Assembly: GCA_035256765.1 (NCBI GenBank)
Contig: DATEXR010000017.1
Location: forward strand, 1-62,503
Length of the DNA: 62,503 nt
Reading direction: 5' to 3'
From: Candidatus Deferrimicrobiaceae bacterium
GTDB lineage: Bacteria > Desulfobacterota > Deferrimicrobia > Deferrimicrobiales > Deferrimicrobiaceae
Shown here: piece by piece, positions 12,087-62,503 of the stretch
Numbering within the stretch: the first letter of the stretch is position 1
Layout: every line of letters starts with the position of its first letter
Made by a program: the position numbers and the translations under genes
Notes under the pieces: model-generated
The model's input: the letters and a program-made list of their open reading frames with translations, nothing else
Told to the model about the DNA's origin: nothing
The model's database searches: none

Positions 12087-12482
12087 GTCCTCCCCCGCGC
12101 ATCCGGCTTCCTATTGCAGCATCTCGTAAATGGCTTGACGGTCCGATCCGCCGCCGGGATCGCCCGGGACAGGCGGCCTTCCCGCGCACAGGGCGCTGCG
12201 GAACCGGCAGCGGGCGGGCGCAAGGTCCCGATCGTTTGCCAACGCAGCCCCCCGGCATCCAGAGGTCCGTTCCGGAAGAGGCCGTGCACCGAGAGGGTCG
12301 ATGCGCCCCGACCGGCGAGGCGCCCGGCCGAGGCGTACCCGCCGCGGTACGGTGAGGGCGGGCAACGAAGCCGGCGGGGATGCAGCGGCCCTCGAATGCC
12401 GGGATCTCCCGGGAATGGATCTCCGGAGGCCGGCGAGCCCGTGCGACGGACTCGTTGCTCCCTGGTTTGCCAAGACGCAACA

Positions 12483-39723: not shown

Positions 39724-41156
39724 AAAAAGTCCTCATAGCCGACGACGACGAGAGCATCCGCTGGGTGCTGAAGAAGACGGTCGCGGGGATGGGATTCTCG
39801 CCCGACCTTGCCGAGGACGGGGAGAAAGCACTCTCCCTGCTGACGAAGAACCTCTACGTTGCGGCCTTCGTCGACATCCGGATGCCCGGCATGGAAGGAA
39901 TCGAGGTCCTCGAACGGGCCCAGGCGCGGAGATCCCCGACCCGGTTCTTCATCATGACCGCCGTCCGCCGCCCGGATGCCGCCGCCCGCTCCACCCGCGC
40001 GGGGGCCGCCGAATTCATCACCAAGCCGTTCGACATTGCCCATATCGAGAACCTCCTCCGGGAAGTCACGAAAGAGTCGGCCTCCCGCGAGCGGCCTTTC
40101 CGGACGGAAGACCCCGAGGAGTGGAAGTCGGCCCGGATCGTGGGGAAAAGCCGCGCCATCCTGGAGGTCTTCCTGGGCGTGGGGAAGGTGGCGGACTCCG
40201 ATGCTACCGTCCTGCTCCTGGGGGAGCGCGGGGTGGGGAAGGAGCTCGTCGCTCGCTGCATCCACGATCTGGGGACCCGGGGCGGTCCGTTCGTGGCGGT
40301 CAACGCGTCCGCCATCCCGCGGGACCTGCAGGAGGCGGAGCTGTTCGGCTTCGAGAAGGGGGCGTTCACCGGGGCGGAGGCGCCCCGGGAAGGGAAACTG
40401 GAGGCGTCCTCGGGGGGGACCCTGTTCCTCGACGAGGTCGGCGACATCCCGCCCGACCTCCAGGCGAAGCTCCTCCGCGTGCTGCAGGAAAAGGAGTTCT
40501 CGAGGCTGGGGTCGAACGAGAATCGGAAGTTCCAGGGACGCGTCATCGCGGCGACCAACCGTGACCTGCGGCGGATGGTCGCCGACGGAAAATTCCGGGA
40601 GGATCTCTTCGACCGGCTGAACGTCTTCCCGGTACGCGTCCCCCCCCTCTCGGAGAGGCGGGAGGACATCCCCCTTCTCGCGGATTTCTTCCTCCAGAAA
40701 TATTGCGCGATCCTCTCCCGCCCCCCCCGGTCGTTCTCGAAGGAGGCGCTGGAGGTGGTGGCGTCCCACAACTGGAAAGGAAACGTCCGGGAGCTGGAAA
40801 ACTTCGTGCAGAGACTGGCCGTCCTCTCCACGGGAAAACTCCTGCGGCGGGAGGAGGTGGCGCGGGAACTGGTCAAGGCGGACGGTGCGCCGGACCTCTC
40901 CACGGCGCCGCTGGAGCAGATCATCGAGGAACGGATCCGGGAGTTCACGGGACGCCTGGGGGATGCGATCGAGAGCGAGAGCAACCTCCACGACCTCTTC
41001 CTCCGGCAGATGGAGAAGCCGCTCATCAAGATCGTCATGGAGGCGACCGGCGGAAACCAGAGGAAGGCGGCGGAGATCCTGGGGATCAACCGGAACACCC
41101 TGCGGAAAAAACTGTCGTCCCTCTCGCTCCTTCCCAGGAAGAAGAAGTCCCGCTGA
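39720..41156 (+). CDS. sigma54-dependent response regulator (NtrC family)
   Basis: GTG 39720 overlaps the kinase stop. Receiver domain, AAA+ domain with GERGVGKE, ELFGFEKGAFTGA (GAFTGA) and a C-terminal Fis-type HTH. Confidence 0.93.
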   Translation: MKKVLIADDDESIRWVLKKTVAGMGFSPDLAEDGEKALSLLTKNLYVAAFVDIRMPGMEGIEVLERAQARRSPTRFFIMTAVRRPDAAARSTRAGAAEFITKPFDIAHIENLLREVTKESASRERPFRTEDPEEWKSARIVGKSRAILEVFLGVGKVADSDATVLLLGERGVGKELVARCIHDLGTRGGPFVAVNASAIPRDLQEAELFGFEKGAFTGAEAPREGKLEASSGGTLFLDEVGDIPPDLQAKLLRVLQEKEFSRLGSNENRKFQGRVIAATNRDLRRMVADGKFREDLFDRLNVFPVRVPPLSERREDIPLLADFFLQKYCAILSRPPRSFSKEALEVVASHNWKGNVRELENFVQRLAVLSTGKLLRREEVARELVKADGAPDLSTAPLEQIIEERIREFTGRLGDAIESESNLHDLFLRQMEKPLIKIVMEATGGNQRKAAEILGINRNTLRKKLSSLSLLPRKKKSR

Positions 41157-41157
41157 G

Positions 41158-43809
41158 CTACTCGTAGTCCCGCGCCAGGTCCTCGAACCGCGTGTAGCGG
41201 GAGAGGAACGCGAGATCGACTACGCCCATCGGGCCGTTCCGCTGCTTCCCGATGATGATCTCGGCCTTCCCCTTTTTCTCCTCGGGAGTGTTCGCCTTGG
41301 CGTACATCTCCTCCCTGTATATGAACAGAATCAAATCTGAATCCTGCTCAATCGCCCCCGAATTGTGGGAAACGAGGCCGTCCGCCAGCCAGGAGGAAGG
41401 CCCCGGAACGGTCAGGTCGAAGACCTCCTCGGCCCCGTCGGTACGAAGATCCGTCACCCGGTCCCAGAACAAGTCGCTTGCGGCGCATCGCCGCAGCGGT
41501 TCATCGTCCAGAAGGATCGCATAGTCCATCAGCAAGGTCCGCGACGGGGAGAAATCGAGCTGCGCGCTTCCCCCGTACGCGGTTCCCCGGAGCGATGCCA
41601 TGTCCCGACGAGAGATTCCCCGCACCGCCATGGCCTCCTTCACCCGGAGAAACATTTCTTTCGGCAACGTGTCGACATTGGGATTGGATTCCACGAAGGC
41701 CAGTTCCTCCCACAGCCTGTCCGCGGGAGCGACGCGCGGCCCGAACGCCCCCACCGTCTCGAGAAAACGCTTCTGCTGATCGGCGTCGGACACATCCACG
41801 GTGTACACAGGTCGGTACTTCCCCTTCCGCACGACCCGGATCCTCGCCACGATCCCGAGCCGCAACAGCAGAGCCGCCACGTCGAAGGCAAGTCCCTCGC
41901 TCGAGGTGCTGAAGTAGACCCGCGACGACCCCTTGGACCCTCCCCGGCGACAGAAGATGCTCCCGTCCGTCGCCCAGAGATGTCTCAACAACAATCCGAC
42001 CTGCTCGTCGTCGAACCGGAAGACCTCCACGGGCAACCGCTTCTCGTGCGATCGCTGTCCGAAGATCCCCAGATCCCGCAGCCAGCGGTTCACCCCGGCC
42101 GGGCGCCACCGGTTGCCGTTCCCACCGATAAAGAGCTGGTGCCATTTCCCCCGTCCGCGAATCCGAGCTACCTTCGATCCGAACTCTCTTCGGGCCGCCC
42201 CTTCGACCGCACAGCTGTTCGGTTCCGATGCCGTCGTGTACCGAAGAGATTGCCCGATAAGATAACTTCCGTCCCCGGCGAGATGGGCCAACAGGATGAT
42301 CCGGTCTTCCGCCCACCGGACCGGTTCTTTCGATTCCGGTACACGGCGAGCCACTGCAATCCGGTCGCCCGGCTTGAGATCGGATACTCGCACCCATCCG
42401 TTGGCGCCGTACAGACGGTGATCGGCGGTGGCGCGGATCATGCGGCCGCTGGCCATGGTGACACGCACCACGGGCCTCGTTCCCACCGACCAAATACATT
42501 CACTCTTCGCCGGGACGATCCTGCCTTCCGGCGACATCGACCACACCTCGGCCTCTTTGCCGACCAAATCCCGGATGGAAGGGCGGAGTCCGTCGGTCGT
42601 CAGAACCAGGGTGTCGCCCGTCACGCATTCCCTCAGATCCGCCATCTGGGGCCGCTTGTCGGTCCGGCTCTCCACTCCCCGGTTGAGCTGGGAGATGGCG
42701 AGAACCGGGACGTTGATCTCCTTCGCCAGGGCCTTGAGCGACCGTGAGATCTCCGAGATCTCCTGGACGCGGTTGTCCTGACCCGAACGGGATGTCGCCC
42801 CTCGCATGAGCTGGAGGTAGTCGACGACGACCATCCCGATTCCCTTGTCCTTTTTCAGCCGACGCGCCTTCGCGCGAAGCTCGAGGGCGGTGAGGGTCCC
42901 GGAGTCGTCGCAGTAGATCGGCGCCTCGGAGAGCTTCCCCACGGACGCGACGATGCGGTTGATCTCGTCCTGGGCCAGGTACCCGGTCCGCAGCCGCTGG
43001 AAATCGACGCGGGCATCGGAACAGATCATGCGGAGCGCGAGCTGCTGGCGGCTCATCTCCAGGGAGAAGATCGCGACCGGCAGCCCGTGGCGCAGGGCGG
43101 CGTGGAGGGCCACGTTCAGGGAGAAGGCCGTCTTTCCCATGCCGGGACGGGCCGCGATGACCACCATGTCGGCCTTCTGGAACCCCGCGGTCAGCCGGTC
43201 GAGATCGCGGAATCCGGAGGGGACCCCGGTGATCATCTCCTTCTTCTCGTAGAGCTTCTCGATCTCCCGCATCGCCTCCTTGCCCATCTCCGCCATCGAG
43301 TAGTAGGAGGGCTTGATCTTTTCCTCGGCGATCGCGAAGATCGCCTGCTCGGTCTTGTCGAGGAAGTCGTCGACCTCCCCGACCCCCTGGAACGCGGAGT
43401 TCGTGATCTGCTGGGCGACGGCGATCATGCTCCGCAGGATCGATTTCTCCTTCACCAGGCGCGCGTAGTCGGCGACGTTCGCGGTGGTGGGAATGTTGTG
43501 GATGAGCTCGGAGAGGTAGGAAAGGCCGCCCACCTCGTTCGCCACGCCCCGGGCGTTGAGGGACTCGGCGAGCGTCAGCTGGTCGATCGCCCGGCCCCGT
43601 TCGTAGAGGTCCACCATGGTGGAGAAGAGCGTCCGGTGGGCGCCCTGGTAGAAGTCGTCCGCGCGGAGAATCTCCACCACGTCGTTCATCAGGTCGTTGT
43701 TGAGCAGGACCGAGGCGAGCACGGCCTGCTCGGCCTCGAGACTGTGGGGAGGGATCTTCAGAAGAGAAGTTTCCGACGCACCCTGCGACGTCAGCCGCGA
43801 ACCGCTCAT
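41158..43809 (-). CDS. dnaB: replicative DNA helicase DnaB, interrupted by an intein
   Basis: 883 aa. PHSLEAEQAVLASVL, Walker A ARPGMGKTAF, and the DLRE / SGAIEQDSD helicase motif split by 422 aa. Confidence 0.95.
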   Translation of the reverse strand: MSGSRLTSQGASETSLLKIPPHSLEAEQAVLASVLLNNDLMNDVVEILRADDFYQGAHRTLFSTMVDLYERGRAIDQLTLAESLNARGVANEVGGLSYLSELIHNIPTTANVADYARLVKEKSILRSMIAVAQQITNSAFQGVGEVDDFLDKTEQAIFAIAEEKIKPSYYSMAEMGKEAMREIEKLYEKKEMITGVPSGFRDLDRLTAGFQKADMVVIAARPGMGKTAFSLNVALHAALRHGLPVAIFSLEMSRQQLALRMICSDARVDFQRLRTGYLAQDEINRIVASVGKLSEAPIYCDDSGTLTALELRAKARRLKKDKGIGMVVVDYLQLMRGATSRSGQDNRVQEISEISRSLKALAKEINVPVLAISQLNRGVESRTDKRPQMADLRECVTGDTLVLTTDGLRPSIRDLVGKEAEVWSMSPEGRIVPAKSECIWSVGTRPVVRVTMASGRMIRATADHRLYGANGWVRVSDLKPGDRIAVARRVPESKEPVRWAEDRIILLAHLAGDGSYLIGQSLRYTTASEPNSCAVEGAARREFGSKVARIRGRGKWHQLFIGGNGNRWRPAGVNRWLRDLGIFGQRSHEKRLPVEVFRFDDEQVGLLLRHLWATDGSIFCRRGGSKGSSRVYFSTSSEGLAFDVAALLLRLGIVARIRVVRKGKYRPVYTVDVSDADQQKRFLETVGAFGPRVAPADRLWEELAFVESNPNVDTLPKEMFLRVKEAMAVRGISRRDMASLRGTAYGGSAQLDFSPSRTLLMDYAILLDDEPLRRCAASDLFWDRVTDLRTDGAEEVFDLTVPGPSSWLADGLVSHNSGAIEQDSDLILFIYREEMYAKANTPEEKKGKAEIIIGKQRNGPMGVVDLAFLSRYTRFEDLARDYE
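41362..42627 (-). mobile_element. DnaB intein with LAGLIDADG homing-endonuclease domain (residues 395-816)
   Basis: Begins with Cys (TGC, complement of 42625-42627; CVTGDTLVLTTDG). Ends ...LVSHN (AAT, complement of 41362-41364) followed by Ser+1. Endonuclease blocks are LLAHLAGDGSY and LLRHLWATDGSI. Removing it restores DLRE-SGAIEQDSD. Confidence 0.9.
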
Positions 43810-49238: not shown

Positions 49239-51866
49239 TTACCCCGCTTTTCGAAAGGAAAAACCGGTTTCCCCGTCCGCGTCCACCAGGACGGAATCCC
49301 CTTCGCGGAATTCCCCCTTGAGGATGTGGAGCGCGAGGGGGTCCTGGAGGTGCTTCTGGATGGCCCGGCGAAGCGGTCTTGCCCCGTAGGCGGGGTCGTA
49401 CCCGATCTCCGCAAGCCTTTCCCGGGCGGCGTCGGTCACGGTGACCGCGATCTTCCTGTCCGCAAGCCGGTCGTTCACCTCCCGGAGCATGATCCCGATG
49501 ATCCTTGCCAGTTCCTCCTTCCCGAGGGACCGGAACAGGATGATCTCGTCGAGACGGTTCAGGAACTCGGGGCGGAATTGCCGGCGGAGCTCCTCCATGA
49601 CCTTCTCCCGGACGGCCTTTTCTCCCTTGCCGGAGAGTTCCTGGATCCAGGAGGAGCCGATGTTGGAGGTAAGGATCACAACGGCGTTCCGGAAATCGAC
49701 GGTCCTTCCCTTCCCGTCGGTCAGCCGCCCGTCCTCGAGGATCTGCAGGAGGATGTGGAAGACGTCGGGGTGCGCCTTCTCCACCTCGTCGAACAGGATC
49801 ACCGTGTACGGTTTCCGTCGCACCGCCTCGGTCAGCGCACCCCCCTCCTCGTACCCCACGTACCCGGGGGGAGCCCCGATCATCCGCGCCACGGAGTGTC
49901 TCTCCATGTACTCGGACATGTCGAGGCGCACCATCGCCTGCTCGTCGTCGAAGAGAAACTGGGCCAGGGCCCGCGCCAGCTCCGTCTTCCCGACGCCGGT
50001 GGGCCCCATGAACAGGAAGGAACCGATGGGGCGGCGGGGGTCCTTCAACCCCGACCGGGCGCGGCGGACGGCGCTCGCGACGAGCCGGATGGCGTCGTCC
50101 TGGCCCACCACCCGCTCGCCGAGCCGCTCCTCCATCCGGACGAGCTTCTCGATCTCCCCCTCGACCAGCCTCGAGACCGGGATCCCGGTCCAGCGGGAGA
50201 CGACCTGGGCGATGTCCTCCTCATCCACCTCTTCCTTGAGGAGACGACCCCCGGGTTGGGTGATGTGCGGGGACACTCCTCTCCCGTGTCCCGGAGATAT
50301 ATCCGGAATGTCCCCCCTTAGCGCCTCCGCTTCTTTCTGCAGGGCGGGGATTTCGCCGTATTTCAGCTTCGAGGCCTTCCCGAGATCCCCCTCCCGCTCG
50401 GCCCGCTGCATCTCGGAGAGGGCCCGCTCGATCTTCTCCTTGACCTCGCGGCTCTTCCCGATCGCCTTCTTCTCCTCCTCCCACCGGGAGCGGTACTCCG
50501 CCGCCTTCCCCGAAAGCGCCGCCAGCTCCTCCTGGATGCGGGTGAGGCGCTGCCCCGAGGCGGCGTCGGTCTCCTTCGACAGGGCCTGCTTCTCCATCTC
50601 GAGCTGGATGATCTTCCGTTCGACCTCGTCGATCTCGGTGGGAACGGAGTCGATCTCGATCTTGAGCTTCGACGCGGCCTCGTCCACCAGGTCGATCGCC
50701 TTGTCGGGGAGAAACCGGTCGGAAATGTACCGGTTCGACAGGGTGGCGGCGGCGACAAGGGCCGAATCCTTGATTCGGACGCCGTGGTGCACCTCGTACC
50801 GGCCTTTGAGCCCCCGCAGGATCGCGATCGTGTCCTCGACCGACGGCTCCTCCACGAGAACGGGCTGGAAGCGCCTCTCCAGCGCGGCGTCCTTTTCCAC
50901 GTATTTGCGGTACTCGTCCAGGGTGGTCGCCCCGATGCAGCGCAGTTCGCCCCGGGCGAGGGCCGGTTTGAGCATGTTGGATGCGTCCATCGCCCCTTCG
51001 GCCTTGCCGATCCCCACGAGCGTGTGCAGCTCGTCGATGAAGAGGATCACCCGCCCCTCCGCGGCGGCGATCTCCGCAAGGACCGCCTTGAGCCGCTCCT
51101 CGAATTCGCCGCGGTACTTCGCGCCGGCGATCAGCGCCCCCATGTCCAGGGCGAGAACCCGCTTGTCCCGGAGACTTTCGGGGACGTCCCGGGTGACCAT
51201 CCGCTGCGCCAGTCCCTCGGCGATCGCCGTCTTCCCGACGCCCGGATCCCCGATCAGGACGGGGTTGTTCTTCGTCCGCCGGGAGAGGACCTGGATCACC
51301 CTCCGGATCTCGTCGTCCCTGCCGATGACGGGATCGAGCTTCTCCCGGCGGGCCAGTTCGGTCAGGTCCCGGCAATATCTGTCGAGCGCCTGGTACTTCG
51401 CCTCGGGGTTTTCATCCGTGATCCGCTGCGTCCCCCGGATGGAGGTAAGCGCCGACAGGAGACTTTCCCGCGTCACGCCGTGCCGACGGAGCAGATCCGC
51501 GAGGGCCCCCGGTTCGACGGTCATGGCGAGGAGGAAGTGTTCGGCGGAGAGGTACTCGTCCCGGAAGGCGTCCGCCTCGGCGAGCGCCCGGTTGAAAAGG
51601 GGTTCCATCCGCGGGGAGAGCCCGCGGCTCACGGCTCCCGACACCTTGGGGAAGGAACCGAGCAGGGAGGTCGCCCCGGACAGAAGACGCGGGACCGGCA
51701 CGCCCGCGCGGGCGAAAAGGTCCGTCGCCACCCCCCCCTCCTGGCGGAGCAGGGCGACGAAGAGATGTTCCGGCTCCACCTGGGCGTGGCCCGCCTCCGA
51801 GGCGATGCGGACGGCGTCCTGCAGAGCCTCCTGCGACTTCACGGTCAACTTGTCCAGAGATATCAT
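49239..51866 (-). CDS. clpB: ATP-dependent chaperone ClpB (carries an extra ~16 codons between the M-domain and NBD2)
   Basis: 875 aa with two AAA+ modules ([16 protein letters not shown]), a long coiled-coil M-domain and SRWTGIPV. There is no obvious Shine-Dalgarno sequence before the ATG. Confidence 0.95.
50269..50317. repeat. intragenic copy of the GGGGACACTCCT / GGAGTGTCCCC palindromic element (10/12 arm match)
   Basis: GGGGACACTCCT (50269-50280), a 24-nt spacer containing CCGGA-GATATA-TCCGG, then cGGAaTGTCCCCCC (50304-50317). Read on the coding strand it encodes [18 protein letters not shown] of ClpB. Confidence 0.75.
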
Positions 51867-51907
51867 CGGATATTCTTACAGCTCGATGAGGGGGGCTTTC
51901 TTGCAAC

Positions 51908-51955
51908 GGGGGGACACTCCTCAACATGAAACTCGAGATAGGAGTGTCCCCCCCC
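51908..51955. repeat. perfect 14-bp inverted repeat GGGGGGACACTCCT-N18-AGGAGTGTCCCCCC between degP and clpB
   Basis: Left arm 51908-51921 and right arm 51940-53 (C-run to 51955). It lies 42-89 nt upstream of the clpB ATG and about 36 nt after the degP stop. Confidence 0.9.
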
Positions 51956-53463: not shown

Positions 53464-53930
53464 TTGATCTCCCCTCCCGGGCCCTGGCCCGCCTTCGGCG
53501 CGGAAACCCCCGCCTTGACGGCCGCCACGTACACCATCCGGAGGTGATAGAGCCCCTCCGAAAGAACACCCGACTCCTCCTCCGTGAGGTTCCCCTTGGT
53601 CTTCTCCTTGAGGATTTCGAGGAGGTCGATCGAGTCCTTGGCCGCCGGGAGGTTCACCGGGGACCTCCGGCCGTCGCCGGCCTGGACCATCCCCAGGTTG
53701 ACCATCGCCCCCATCTGGACCGACAGCACGAGATCGAGGAACGACGGCCCTCCCACGGGCGATGTTTCGCCCCCAGGGCTTTTTCCTCCATGGACACTCC
53801 CCGGGGCCGTGCGGTTCCCGGCATCGCCTTGCGGCGGCGGAGGAGGTGCGGACTCCTCTGGCCTGGTCTCCTCCTTCTCCACGCCCCGCCGGTCGACGAC
53901 CTTGAATCCCTTTTTCTCCTCTTCGGACAT
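53460..53930 (-). CDS. DUF1844-domain protein
   Basis: 156 aa with [17 protein letters not shown]...[20 protein letters not shown]...LYHLRMVYV. Confidence 0.8.
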
Positions 53931-56206
53931 CAGATGGGCACCCCCTGCGCGATGACGACCACCTCCCCGCCTTCCTCATCGACATCGACGAAGAAGCGAT
54001 CGGACTCCTTCCACTTGAGCGTGATCGGCATTTTCACCTTCTCGTCGATGTGCCGCTTGAGGAAACGGGCCCCGTACTTCACGCTGAACCCAGTCGATGA
54101 GAGGGCGGTGAGGGAGGCGTCGGAGAAGGTAAGCGTCTTGCCCGAGGCCGCCATCGACTTCCGGATCGACCCGAGGTAGATCGCCGCGATCCGCTTCACC
54201 TCGTCGAACGTGAGCGGGGAGAAGACGATGACGTCGTCGAGACGGTTGATGAATTCCGGGGTGAACCGGTTCTCGACCGCCTTGATGATGCTTTTTTTCA
54301 CCGGATCGAAATTTTCGGTGCCGGCAGCGAAGCCCAGGGGGCGGGTCAGTTTCGAAAGCTCTTCCGCGCCCAGATTGCTCGTCATGATGATGATCGCGTC
54401 CGAGAAGTACACCTTCTTCCCGCGCCCGTCGGTCAGCCACCCCTCGTCGAAGACCTGGAGGAAGAGATTGTGCACGTAGGAGTCCGCCTTCTCGATCTCG
54501 TCGAGAAGGACGACCGTATAGGGATTGTCCCGCATCTGGTTGGTCAGGATCCCCCCCCTCTCGGAGCCGACGATGCCGCGCGGCATCCCGATGAGCTTGT
54601 CCACGGCGAGGGCCCCGTCCCGGTATTCCGACATGTCCACCCGGACCATGTGGCGCTCGTCCCCGAAGAGGTATTCCGCGAGCGCCTTCGCCATCTCCGT
54701 TTTTCCGACGCCCGTGGGCCCGAGGAACAGCAGAACGCCGTCCGGACGGAAGATGTTCTCCTTCAAGGGCCCCTTGTTCATCCGAAGCGATTTCCCCACG
54801 GCCCGGATCGCCTCGTGCTGACCGACGAGCCTCCGCGAAATCTTCTCCTCGAAATCCTGGAACCGGTCGAGAACGTCGCGGCGCACGATGTCCGGGGGGG
54901 TCTTCGTCTCCTCGGAGATCACCCCGAGGACGTCCTGGCTCCTCACGGATTTCCCCTCGTCCCCGCGGATCTCGACCCGGACGCACGCCGTGTCGATCCA
55001 GTTGATGATCTTGTCGGGCAAACGCAGCGACCGCGCGTACCGGTCGGACATGGAAAGGGCGAACTCGATCGCCTCGTCCGCGATCTCCACGCCGTAATTG
55101 GTCTCCAGCCTGGCTTTCAGCCCGAACAGGATCTCCCGCGTCTCCTCTTTCGTCGGCTCTTCGATCTTTACGACCCGGAACCGGCGCGCGAGCGCCTCGT
55201 CCTCCTGGATGATCTCCTTGAACTCGGTGAAGGTGGTGGCCCCGATGATCTGGACCTCCCCCCGCGCGAGCGTCGACTTGAAGATGTTCGCGGCGTCGGA
55301 GGGGACGCCCATCGCGGAGCCGGCCCCGATCAGGGTGTGGGCCTCGTCGATGAACAGGATCAGGTTCCGGCGCTCCCGGACCTCGGCGATGACCTTCTCG
55401 ATGCGGTCCTCGAACATGCCTCGGAAGACCGTGCCCGCCACCACCGTGTTCATCTGCAGGTTGACGACCTGGTGGGCCCGCAGGCGTTCCGGGACCCTGT
55501 GCGGCTCGTATTCCAGCCGCATCGCGAGCCCCTCCACCACCGCGGTCTTCCCGACACCGGGGTCCCCGATGATCATCACCGAGTTGCTCCGGTCCTTGTG
55601 GCAGAGATATTCGATGATCCGGTCGATCTCCCGGTCCCGCCCCACGATCGGCGGGATCTTTCCCTCCCGCGCGAGAAGATTCAGGTTCACCCCGAACGTC
55701 CGCAGGTTGGCGGGCAGCTCGTACCGCTTGCGGAACTCCTCGACCTTCTCCTCCCGGCTGCGCAGCTGGGTCGAAAAGCGGGAAAGAGCGACGGCGGGGT
55801 CCACCCCGTAGTTCTTGAGGATCCGGGACGGGATCGAATGGACCTCGTGGAAGATCCCGAGGAAAAGATCCGCGGCGTCGATCTGGGACCGGCGGTTTCT
55901 CTGCGCCGTCTCCCAGGCCACCCGGAAGACCTGCTTCGTCGCCGGCGGGACCTTGAGCCCCACGCCGAGGTACTGCCGGGAGATGTTCAAGTGCTCGTTC
56001 ACCGAGTAGAGCACCGCTTCGACGGAAAGCCCCACGGACGCCATGAGCTCCCGGAACGTCGACTTCTCCTGTTCGGCGAACGCGATGAACAGGTGCTCGA
56101 GGCCGAGGTAATAGTGGTGCCGGCGCTGGGACTCCTCGATGGAGGCGTTCAGCATCCGCTGACCGGACTCGGAGAGCTTCTCCCGGTAGAACGAGATCTC
56201 CATCAT
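53930..56206 (-). CDS. ClpA/ClpC-type AAA+ unfoldase (two NBDs, ClpP-docking LGF loop)
   Basis: 758 aa with Clp_N repeats, GDPGVGKT and GPTGVGKT, and no long M-domain. RPLGFAAG aligns with the ClpA IGL / ClpC IGF loop. Confidence 0.88.
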   Translation of the reverse strand: MMEISFYREKLSESGQRMLNASIEESQRRHHYYLGLEHLFIAFAEQEKSTFRELMASVGLSVEAVLYSVNEHLNISRQYLGVGLKVPPATKQVFRVAWETAQRNRRSQIDAADLFLGIFHEVHSIPSRILKNYGVDPAVALSRFSTQLRSREEKVEEFRKRYELPANLRTFGVNLNLLAREGKIPPIVGRDREIDRIIEYLCHKDRSNSVMIIGDPGVGKTAVVEGLAMRLEYEPHRVPERLRAHQVVNLQMNTVVAGTVFRGMFEDRIEKVIAEVRERRNLILFIDEAHTLIGAGSAMGVPSDAANIFKSTLARGEVQIIGATTFTEFKEIIQEDEALARRFRVVKIEEPTKEETREILFGLKARLETNYGVEIADEAIEFALSMSDRYARSLRLPDKIINWIDTACVRVEIRGDEGKSVRSQDVLGVISEETKTPPDIVRRDVLDRFQDFEEKISRRLVGQHEAIRAVGKSLRMNKGPLKENIFRPDGVLLFLGPTGVGKTEMAKALAEYLFGDERHMVRVDMSEYRDGALAVDKLIGMPRGIVGSERGGILTNQMRDNPYTVVLLDEIEKADSYVHNLFLQVFDEGWLTDGRGKKVYFSDAIIIMTSNLGAEELSKLTRPLGFAAGTENFDPVKKSIIKAVENRFTPEFINRLDDVIVFSPLTFDEVKRIAAIYLGSIRKSMAASGKTLTFSDASLTALSSTGFSVKYGARFLKRHIDEKVKMPITLKWKESDRFFVDVDEEGGEVVVIAQGVPI

Positions 56207-61581: not shown

Positions 61582-61608
61582 TTTTTCCTCCCTGCACCCT
61601 ACCTGATG

Positions 61609-61625
61609 TCCAACATCCGTGCCAA
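61609..61625 (-). promoter_or_regulatory. candidate sigma54 (-24/-12) promoter upstream of the receiver-dnaK operon
   Basis: The minus strand reads TTGGCACG-GATG-TTGGA. The -24 element is perfect, but the -12 reads TTGG instead of TTGC. It lies about 28 nt upstream of the GTG at 61581. Confidence 0.5.
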
Positions 61626-61783
61626 AGGGAGCCCCCTTGTAAGATCAGCATAACTTTCTGTTTTTAATCAGTTATTATTGGCCAATACCGGACAGGCGAT
61701 CAACCGAAGAAAAAATCGCGCCAAAATGGCGTACCTGCGCCGCCCCTGGGCTGCGCCATTTTGACGTGATCAACTTCCTGTGC

Positions 61784-61876
61784 GGGGACACTCCGGGGAC
61801 ACTCCTGATTCTATCGACGAGAAATAAAGGAGTGTCCCCACCCAGTGTTAGGAATGTCCCCCTTGGGAGTGTCCCC
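61784..61876. repeat. cluster of five GGGGACACTCC(T) / (A)GGAGTGTCCCC half-sites
   Basis: Forward copies at 61784-61794 and 61795-61806 (tandem, 11-bp register). Reverse copies at 61828-61839 (perfect), 61850-61862 (GGAATGTCCCCC) and 61865-61876. Confidence 0.9.
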
Positions 61877-61985
61877 GGGGACCGCAACCGGGGCCCCTGG
61901 CTCGCGGAGGGGTCCCCTCGGCTACGCTCGCGACCTTGCGCCCGCTCGCTGCCGGTTCCGCTCGACGCGATTTCTTCCCTTCGGC

Positions 61986-62034
61986 GGGACACTCCTCCAA
62001 CCGTACTACCGACAACCTCCAGGAGTGTCCCCCC
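61986..62034. repeat. inverted repeat GGGACACTCCT-N24-AGGAGTGTCCCCCC
   Basis: Left arm 61986-61996 and right arm 62021-62034, with perfect 11-bp complementarity. Confidence 0.9.
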
Positions 62035-62332
62035 GCCTCGTCGACCCCCCCGCATCGCCTCGGGTCCCCGGCCGACGAACAAGCCACGCGGCGCCTTCCC
62101 GGTGCGTACCCTACACCGGGGCGCCATCGGCGGAGCAGCCGAAGGACGGGGGGTCCGAACGGAGCTTTCCGGGAGGAAGGTCAAGCGCAGACTTGCGGGT
62201 TCATCGCAAGTCGAGCGACGAAGTGAGCGACCCCCCTCCGAGGATGCGGAGCGATAGCCGCCCGCGAGCCCCGGGCACCGGGAGGCACGTATAGAACCGT
62301 TGCCATATTTTGGATATGAACCACGAAGCTTC

Positions 62333-62503
62333 CTAGGAGATCCCGTACTCCCTGACTTTTCGCTGGAGGGTTCGCAGCCCGATCCCGAGCCTCTTCGCCG
62401 CCTGCGTCTTGTTCCCGTCCGTCTTCAGCAGGGCGGCCACGATGGCCTCGCGCTCGATCTCCTCGAGCGTTCGGGCCGAAGGAAGGGGAATCGGTCCGGA
62501 CGG
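62333..62503 (-). CDS. sigma54-dependent transcriptional activator, C-terminal Fis-type HTH (5' part outside the window)
   Basis: Not in the ORF track. My minus-strand translation ends ...PSARTLEEIEREAIVAALLKTDGNKTQAAKRLGIGLRTLQRKVREYGIS-TAG (stop 62333-62335), the typical C-terminus of NtrC-family enhancer-binding proteins. Confidence 0.8.
   Translation of the reverse strand, partial: PSGPIPLPSARTLEEIEREAIVAALLKTDGNKTQAAKRLGIGLRTLQRKVREYGIS

Follow-up and report, generated by a model that had tools for sequence, protein, structure and literature searches.

How does a palindromic stretch of DNA come to lie in frame, and to be translated, inside the gene of a chaperone? The clpB gene of a Candidatus Deferrimicrobiaceae bacterium raises this question. 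It occupies positions 49239–51866 (minus strand) of a 62,503-nucleotide stretch of contig DATEXR010000017.1 (assembly GCA_035256765.1), which was analysed at its full length and is called the window here. A preliminary description of the sequence had located a palindromic element at 50269–50317 within this gene, and proposed that it was DNA inserted and exonised in a surface linker, in the manner of the Rickettsia palindromic elements (RPEs). We find that the segment 50262–50317 probably belongs to a family of small, dispersed selfish repeats that form hairpins, and that it has been exonised and is tolerated in a disordered loop of ClpB.

A hairpin repeat translated within clpB

The host gene is intact. 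Its open reading frame (ORF) encodes 875 amino acids (aa), aligns end to end with solved ClpB structures in HMMER alignments (E about 1e-300), and its translation carries the normal ClpB set of Pfam domains (Clp_N, AAA, AAA_lid_9, AAA_2, and ClpB_D2-small). Within it, the exact sequence at 50269–50317 is GGGGACACTCCTCTCCCGTGTCCCGGAGATATATCCGGAATGTCCCCCC, with the layout GGGGACACTCC-N25-GGAATGTCCCC; the preliminary description had the sequence and coordinates right, and its spacer count of 24 nt was one base off. The arms, at 50269–50279 and 50305–50315, are complementary at 10 of 11 positions. On the coding strand the full feature (50262–50317, minus strand) reads GG-GGGGACATTCC-25 nt spacer-GGAGTGTCCCC-GCACATC and encodes R517–I535; we assign it to an "a-type" subfamily of hairpins that resemble REPINs, i.e. 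inverted pairs of repetitive extragenic palindromic (REP) sequences.

The 5' arm on the coding strand (GGGGACATTCC, 50305–50315, minus strand) is read as G-D-I-P and the 3' arm (GGAGTGTCCCC, 50269–50279, minus strand) as G-V-S-P, both being recognised by arm matches and over-representation. They share one frame—i.e. GGG GAC AYT CCn gives GD[IT]P and GGA GTG TCC CCn gives GVSP—and in the translation of the ORF the stretch 50269–50317 is read through without a stop as R517–H534, as had been claimed. In the mRNA, the copy is predicted to fold as a hairpin of -35 kcal/mol (z = -4.2), with no U-tract after it.

The linker that carries the hairpin is long. A total of 24 residues separate ...EAEAL from RLLKEEV in the window ClpB, the count given earlier, and at the insert the HMMER alignments open 16 gap columns with E. 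coli ClpB and 15 with that of M. tuberculosis. Overall, the linker is 14–16 codons longer than in these two species and in the nearest insert-free relatives, whose ClpBs measure 858–861 aa compared with 875 aa in the window. The preliminary description had equated an excess of about 48 nt with the element. The extra length is real, but it is not a simple addition: every insert allele has lost about 24–27 nt of the ancestral linker (AGK.S...) to the replacement, so that the gene gains 42–45 nt net.

Copies of the same element, a repeat of about 55 nt, are dispersed in Deferrimicrobiaceae (MBNT15) genomes; loci outside the window are given here by L numbers. In blastn-short comparisons, the clpB copy of the window is 89.8% identical over 49 nt to the consensus GGGGACATTCCTGATTCATCTCCGGGATGCGGGAGAGGAGTGTCCCCGC; a-type copies at six non-clpB loci (L011, L114, L002, L048, L070, and L074) are 92–100% identical to this consensus, another at L001:19646 is degenerate, and the clpB copy of L084 is 94% identical. 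The flanks CTCRCC and GCMCATC are conserved and form part of the repeat, and no target-site duplication or flanking direct repeat is seen at any of 10 a-type copies. Outside clpB, the a-type copies are intergenic or lie just upstream of unrelated genes (O-methyltransferase, SCO1-like, and acyl-CoA dehydrogenase-type), the ORFs that span them look non-genic, and additional copies surface in metagenomes as spurious small ORFs. Among the matches listed, hits come from four loci of the CSP1-8 genome (L011, L046, L114, and L117), at least five contigs of MFD10095, and at least three of CSMAG_819. One 94%-identical a-type copy (L074:2227–2275) sits on a contig assigned to candidate division NC10 CSP1-5, a bin of the study that also yielded the Deferrimicrobiaceae metagenome-assembled genome (MAG) CSP1-8, and reflects either horizontal transfer or mis-binning.

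The arms themselves are strongly over-represented in the window, where the exact 11-mer GGGGACAYTCC occurs 10 times compared with 0.23 expected, a more than 40-fold excess that none of 100 shuffles reaches. All window arms stand in head-to-head groups (forward then reverse) at four loci: 50269–50315, 51910–51951, 61784–61876, and 61985–62032. The earlier view that the same element occurs elsewhere in the window therefore holds for the arms and fails for the spacers, which are unrelated at the three other loci. The subfamily of the clpB copy has a conserved spacer, and no further copy of this subfamily is present in the window.

Across 34 Deferrimicrobiaceae loci, the arms lie in short intergenic gaps, typically 3–60 nt from gene ends, to which the clpB copy is an exception. 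Spacers are 20 to 26 nt and reach 40 nt elsewhere, arrays of 3–5 arms are seen, and nested arrays with a period of about 19 nt are common (>arm> tgNcNNgg >arm> loop <arm< ccNNgNca <arm<). Hairpins of the family fold with z-scores of -3.5 to -5.1. A genome-wide palindrome pattern scan, read as genome fragments, returned at least 120 loci; apart from those in Deferrimicrobiaceae and Steroidobacteraceae-like genomes, its matches are for the most part long palindromes of an ordinary kind or hairpins that resemble terminators. Four matches in viral contigs were uninformative, and a literature search found no description of the arm motif or of repeats in Deferrimicrobiaceae, the arm sequences returning primers and unrelated matches.

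In an AlphaFold model of the window ClpB, the last helix of the middle domain (M-domain; residues 495–518) is confident, residues 519–539 are coil with a predicted local distance difference test (pLDDT) score below 50, and order returns at about residue 546. The insert is thus modelled as a loop after the last M-domain helix, in line with the surface loop that had been supposed. The model is poor overall (mean pLDDT 64) and is used solely for this local statement, with no fold search made on it; residues 519–539 also fall in gap columns of the alignments to Protein Data Bank entries. Read on the consensus, the element is open in four of its six frames. We attribute the survival of the clpB copy to a net change that is a multiple of three, to these open frames, and to a host site that is a disordered, length-variable surface loop, which also leaves the chaperone intact. 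The exonised insertion proposed at the outset is therefore upheld by 90% identity over 49 nt to a dispersed non-clpB repeat, by the polymorphism of the insert described below, and by the disorder of the loop.

Alleles of the ClpB linker

The closest ClpBs are 78–100% identical to that of the window and come from MAGs labelled Candidatus Deferrimicrobiaceae or "Deltaproteobacteria bacterium", a lineage that corresponds to MBNT15/Deferrimicrobium (PMC9386147). The linkers of 115 ClpB relatives fall into five classes. Empty alleles (858–867 aa) have an outgroup-like linker of the AGKASGGSEGR type. The window carries an F1 allele, with a single hairpin (GD[IT]PDSSPG/EYGRGVSP; 873–875 aa), and F2 alleles hold an extra forward arm, i.e. 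a three-arm insert (GDTPVSLT-GDIPDSSPEYGRGVSP; 878–882 aa). The R class has the opposite orientation (GDTPLPYSGDESGMSP...GVSP), and a Remnant class reads R[KG]DTPDSPGR. The preliminary description had suggested an alignment of orthologues as a check, and this alignment shows the insert to be lineage-specific and polymorphic, with insert-free alleles keeping the outgroup-type linker. By contrast with these relatives, a scan of metagenome ClpBs recovered only proteins at most 82% identical, all with empty linkers, and was of no help on the insertion boundaries.

The insert is present or absent among ClpBs that are 88–100% identical. In at least five clades, insert-bearing ClpBs have empty-allele near neighbours that are 96–100% identical outside the linker, the extreme being P0045 and P0063 (100%). 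Two loci from sibling samples of a single project, L204 (R allele) and L205 (empty allele), extend this to the DNA: they share 99.85% identity across 22 kb, and their sole structural difference is 77 nt vs 21 nt at the linker site, with no cluster of single-nucleotide polymorphisms around it. Insert-bearing and empty clpB alleles thus coexist in one population.

Some of the other allelic differences follow from the arms. F1 and F2 alleles differ by exactly 8 codons between two direct arms (873-aa vs 881-aa alleles), as expected for a deletion between direct repeats. In-silico inversion of the L084 F2 allele between its outermost inverted arms reproduces the L204 R allele: identical columns between the two rise from 74 of 115 before inversion to 93 of 112 after it, and the inner 61 nt differ at 3 positions. 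Opposite-orientation alleles are therefore in-situ flips rather than separate insertions, and a single flip replaces an initial reading in which each orientation had been inserted independently. L001, which is closest to the window (96%), does not have an empty allele: the first ~20 nt of the element (AAGGACACTCCGGATTCACC) are still in place, and 45 nt between CCGGG microhomologies are missing. Decay is also visible, e.g. in L220, where the 3' arm has become TAAAGTGTCTTC and no other arm occurs in 20.6 kb, and in proteins that read GRGPSA or GSKVSS at this position.

It is unlikely that the same replacement arose independently in five clades. Hence, we infer one or a few original insert events, followed by short-patch transfer of alleles between lineages.

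The empty allele of L205 has a 9-bp G+C stem, GCGGCGGGG-AAGAC-CTCCGCCGC (L205:11556–11580), exactly at the site of the L204 repeat, part of which resembles an arm (GCGGGGAAGACCTCC vs GCGGGGACACTCC). The stem has z = -2.7 in L205, while most other empty alleles give non-significant values of -0.9 to +0.4. The idea that the element targets pre-existing hairpins was accordingly set aside as speculation.

Mobilisation, other arm loci, and rival explanations

What could move such a repeat is suggested by arms in another phylum. In L065, a gammaproteobacterial MAG, two inverted arms 800 nt apart bracket an ORF that matches Pfam Y1_Tnp with 54.8 bits (cut-off 23) and the NCBIfam model for REP-associated tyrosine transposases (RAYTs; REP_Tyr_transpos) with E = 3.5e-21 and 75.6 bits, just below the cut-off of 80. 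The arrangement is repeated in three homologues (L217, L218, and L219; 61–75% identical), where GGGGACATTCC precedes the gene by 90–130 nt and GGAATGTCCCC coincides with the stop codon or follows it closely. The MAGs to which L218 and L219 belong contain hairpin copies as well. All four RAYT genes (L065:4843–5664, and around 1201–1911 in the other three) are bracketed by GGGGACATTCC ... GGAATGTCCCC, and they belong to one Steroidobacteraceae-like clade. Their arms are the same 11-mer as in Deferrimicrobiaceae, often followed by the same TGATT.

Four arm-flanked RAYT genes out of four are the signature of a REP-RAYT pair. In Deferrimicrobiaceae, the repeat has multiple dispersed copies, head-to-head hairpin pairs, short intergenic gaps near gene ends, arrays, and no target-site duplication, all of which are REP-like traits. 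The element is REP/REPIN-like, and its membership of this group in the Deferrimicrobiaceae lineage is probable on these features; the common 11-mer suggests that a REP-RAYT pair may have been shared or transferred across phyla.

Under this explanation, the arms (GGGGACAYTCC / GGARTGTCCCC) would act as REPs and their inverted pairs as REPINs, and a RAYT-type, single-strand "peel and paste" of the hairpin would mobilise them with no target-site duplication. A repeat would in this way have entered the DNA for the variable loop between the last ClpB M-domain helix and the segment towards the second nucleotide-binding domain (NBD2). The three-arm allele may then have given rise to the window-type single hairpin through deletion between direct arms, and to the flipped allele through inversion between inverted arms, with remnants produced by microhomology deletion. 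Alleles would move between lineages by short-patch recombination, and the copy would decay where the element family is lost. Neutrality is most likely for both the peptide and the mRNA hairpin, which would be passengers.

Several observations weigh against this explanation. The clpB event is no clean insertion, since flanking host bases are replaced, and transposition is therefore not directly observed; the patchy distribution of the insert could stem entirely from recombination of one old allele. A tblastn search found no RAYT or IS200 gene in the Deferrimicrobiaceae DNA covered (the window, ~34 loci, and five clpB loci of 14–22 kb, i.e. a few % of the genome per lineage), and the link between arms and RAYTs comes from another phylum, the Gammaproteobacteria. 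The arms measure only 11–14 nt, are not individually palindromic, and have no conserved 5' GTAG, unlike classical E. coli REPs; the bases 5' of them vary (cacc, cagg, gagc, and aagg, with aat in Gammaproteobacteria). The GTAG head and the individually palindromic REP are, however, features that define the E. coli group, and they may not hold for every group of RAYTs. The cross-phylum matches are biased by the palindrome search, many being ordinary terminator-like hairpins. A peptide-profile search with the four open frames gave no second element-bearing protein, with a sensitivity so poor that the ClpBs themselves were missed; it recovered only small spurious ORFs over intergenic copies and carries no weight as negative evidence. 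Finally, a 12-kb heat-shock cluster contains all four window arm loci, and the remaining 50 kb has none despite many intergenic gaps, which could hint at a function.

This cluster is conserved and comprises genes for a sigma-54 activator, a response regulator, dnaK, two hsp20, dnaJ, an M48 peptidase, a clpA/C-like gene, DUF1844, htrA, and clpB, its final gene. A second hairpin ("c-type"; 51907–51954) sits in the htrA-clpB intergenic region, 44–85 nt upstream of the clpB ATG, with arms at 51910–51920 and 51941–51951 and a 20-nt spacer. Orthologous copies occur in L204, L205, L084, and L117, and a further, paralogous copy lies elsewhere in the CSP1-8 genome (L046); L202, L203, and L220 lack it and have a G+C-rich hairpin instead. 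Beside it, alignment and arm map reveal a degenerate third arm (51890–51902; GGGGGGCTTTCTT on the plus strand), which is intact as GGAATGTCCCCCC in L204 and L084.

Two more loci separate the sigma-54 activator gene (stop at about 62336) from the response-regulator/dnaK operon. The first is a nested array of two forward and three reverse arms (61784–61876), which folds as a nested hairpin (-54.6 kcal/mol, z = -4.2). The second is a "D-type" repeat unit of ~130 nt (61924–62054), made up of a module M1 (61926–61968) and a hairpin with arms at 61985–61995 and 62022–62032 around a 26-nt spacer; it is 88% identical to L001:9632–9762, which lies at a different locus, upstream of clpB. M1 recurs beside a-type copies in L011, L114, L048, and L001. 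The intergenic region is about 700 nt long in the window vs 36–163 nt in the arm-free relatives L202 and L203. The same region (61582–62336) holds an unrelated inverted repeat, GCCAAAATGGCG-N23-CGCCATTTTGAC, at 61722–61768, and, on the minus strand, a TGGCGC-N5-TTTC motif that weakly resembles a sigma-54 site.

Such a distribution invites the reading that the arms are operator sites of a DNA- or RNA-binding heat-shock regulator, the intragenic copy being functional (as a roadblock, pause site, or mRNA element) and either tolerated or selected. Arms precede both the response-regulator/dnaK operon and clpB, and are also found within clpB; their ordered arrays with a ~19-nt period resemble binding-site arrays, the clpB-upstream copy is positionally conserved in several species, and the hairpins are stable. 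Yet L202 and L203 have the same heat-shock operon with no arm in 22 and 14 kb, respectively, L220 has a decaying intragenic copy and no promoter copies, spacer length is not constant (20–26 nt, reaching 40 nt elsewhere), transposase genes of other genomes have arms on either side, and Rfam returned a tRNA alone, with no match to the element. The genes beside the arms at the 34 Deferrimicrobiaceae loci are diverse housekeeping genes (e.g. H+-pyrophosphatase, HypD, PurH, aconitase, ribosomal protein L4, and UvrA), with no enrichment of heat-shock genes. A cross-phylum regulatory motif was likewise rejected: the pattern scan matched many phyla, but neighbour genes were not recurrent and heat-shock genes were rarely near. 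Given the housekeeping neighbours and the arm-free sister operons, a regulatory role is distinctly unlikely, and the tolerated intragenic regulatory site that the preliminary description offered as its alternative loses its footing on the same grounds and on the decay in L220. The concentration at heat-shock genes is accounted for at least as well by local spread, in which new copies land near existing ones, as happens in REP clusters. We also give little credence to two related ideas: that the arms make the M-domain/NBD2 linker a fast-switching cassette (empty, single, triple, or flipped) that tunes the chaperone, or that the arms in the clpB and dnaK leaders and within clpB form a shared RNA or DNA control element, such as a hairpin that is labile to heat or a site for a domesticated binder akin to RAYTs. 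If either were true, heat-shock regulation in a Deferrimicrobiaceae lineage would have recruited a family of selfish REPINs.

The flipped allele raises another reading, in which the arms are recombination sites of a programmed intragenic inverton and a recombinase flips the segment between ClpB linker variants. The L204 allele is indeed the L084 allele flipped between its outer inverted arms, both orientations are open and in frame, and alleles differ within one population. This reading is nonetheless highly unlikely: the two orientations occur only in lineages ~3% apart in protein, the alternative within the L204/L205 population is empty and not flipped, no invertase gene lies near clpB in any locus, and the linker peptide is disordered and decays freely. 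A rare inversion between 11–13 nt inverted repeats, RecA-independent or by template switch, suffices for one event. The element might instead be a conventional miniature inverted-repeat transposable element (MITE), i.e. a deletion derivative of an insertion sequence (IS) with a DDE transposase, its arms serving as terminal inverted repeats and RAYTs having no part in its mobilisation. Inverted terminal arms, variable or subfamily-specific interiors, small size, a non-coding interior, and multi-arm ends like those of transposons with several transposase-binding sites would fit, as would the lack of a RAYT in the Deferrimicrobiaceae DNA searched. We consider a MITE unlikely, because target-site duplications are missing at every copy, no full-length IS or DDE transposase bounded by arms was found across ~2.5 Mb of loci, the genes that were found between arms are all of the Y1/RAYT type (4 of 4), and at 47–60 nt the element is under the usual MITE size. 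As for an ordinary lineage-specific expansion of the loop by slippage or drift, with a coincidental palindromic look, loop length and sequence do vary among ClpBs and short stems are frequent in G+C-rich coding DNA; but the identity to repeats at unrelated intergenic loci, the excess of exact arms in the window, and empty alleles in 98–100% identical backgrounds refute it, and we leave it next to no probability. The exonised, REPIN-like selfish repeat thus remains the explanation that we favour.

These genomes also show features of other kinds. At 53930–56206 (minus strand), the heat-shock cluster has a second, shorter Clp/Hsp100-type double-AAA+ gene of 758 aa, with Clp_N and no long M-domain; the DUF1844 gene and htrA come after it, an arrangement kept in all related loci. 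The DnaB helicase of the window (41158–43809, minus strand; 883 aa) contains an intein with a LAGLIDADG homing endonuclease, the extra segment lying at about 41358–42627 (Pfam Intein_splicing, residues 402–816, and LAGLIDADG_3). DnaB is intein-free (461–462 aa) in L001, L202, and L220, and the intein is present in L204 and L205. In L001, a 595-nt intergenic "junkyard" (L001:19399–19993), with no counterpart in the window, where dnaB and an activator gene abut (41156–41158), holds two tandem ~100-nt units that have inverted repeats of their own (GGGACGGTCCTG...CAGGACCGTCCC), together with a degenerate hairpin of the a-type and the modules M1 and M2, with a GTAG-headed mini-palindrome (GTAGCATCCCCCGCTTCGCGGGGAGGATCC) among them. 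A dispersed repeat of ~97 nt, unrelated to the arm family, is 91% identical between intergenic DNA of the window (12354–12450) and the region upstream of clpB in L001 (L001:9804–9899).

Comparison with known repeats, and significance

The closest parallel is with the RPEs (Ogata et al. 2000, Science 290:347, summarised in PMC10969869), selfish palindromic repeats that lie in frame in genes, are about 100–150 bp long, occur in dozens of different genes per genome, and are not known to have a transposase. As with RPEs, a selfish palindrome lies in frame in a conserved housekeeping gene and is translated as an extra, fold-compatible surface segment, and the family is also intergenic. The clpB hairpin is, however, only about 47–60 nt long, clpB is its only known in-frame host, and it has no sequence similarity to RPEs; its host is an unrelated, free-living lineage (Deferrimicrobiaceae/MBNT15), and arms of the clpB type are linked to RAYT genes, at least in Gammaproteobacteria. 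The clpB element is thus an analogue of RPEs and not a member of them.

Another comparison is with REPs and REPINs mobilised by RAYTs (TnpA-REP, of the Y1 HUH type), including clusters of the bacterial interspersed mosaic element (BIME) type, which are said to have been described by Nunvar et al. 2010, Bertels & Rainey 2011, and Ton-Hoang et al. 2012. Shared with these are short units in inverted hairpin pairs, a location in short gaps near gene 3' ends, arrays, the lack of target-site duplication, and, in Gammaproteobacteria, bracketed RAYTs (4 of 4). The arm unit differs in being 11–14 nt, not a clear palindrome, and without a GTAG head, and the Deferrimicrobiaceae arrays are nested (+ + ... 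- -) rather than strictly alternating. Moreover, REPs are extragenic by definition whereas the clpB copy is translated, and the RAYTs here are known from Gammaproteobacteria.

Chanin et al. 2024 reportedly described intragenic invertons, i.e. in-gene DNA inversions flanked by inverted repeats. The clpB segment between inverted repeats likewise exists in both orientations, both translatable, but its flip is seen between lineages, with no evidence of a dedicated recombinase or of switching within a strain, and it looks like a one-off by-product of the arms. Intragenic MITE-like repeats that make in-frame fusions include ERIC, QMITE1 of Coxiella, Correia, and BOX (PMC10969869; PMC5896051). They resemble the clpB element as small, non-autonomous repeats with open frames that occasionally lie in genes and add residues; they are IS-derived or of unknown origin, usually 100–300 bp long, and often have duplicated targets, in contrast to the shorter clpB element with no duplication.

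The clpB case is therefore a clear, but not unprecedented, instance of junk DNA becoming protein. What it adds is an allelic series, a flip documented inside a coding gene, a polymorphism within a population, and a REP core common to gammaproteobacterial RAYTs; with this 11-mer core around the RAYTs, the sharing of a REP-RAYT pair across phyla becomes directly testable. A repeat of REP/REPIN type, extragenic by definition, has here turned into protein in a universally conserved and structurally well-known chaperone, and the host belongs to a free-living, uncultured phylum (MBNT15/Deferrimicrobiaceae) and is not an obligate intracellular parasite. The series is unusually complete, with an empty site, a three-arm insert, a single hairpin by deletion, an in-situ inversion, remnants, and mutational decay. 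For annotation, it warns that variation in ClpB linker length and in-gene hairpins can be repeat-derived. For the biology of these repeats, the clpB locus is a natural experiment in how selfish hairpins create, remodel, and lose protein loops.

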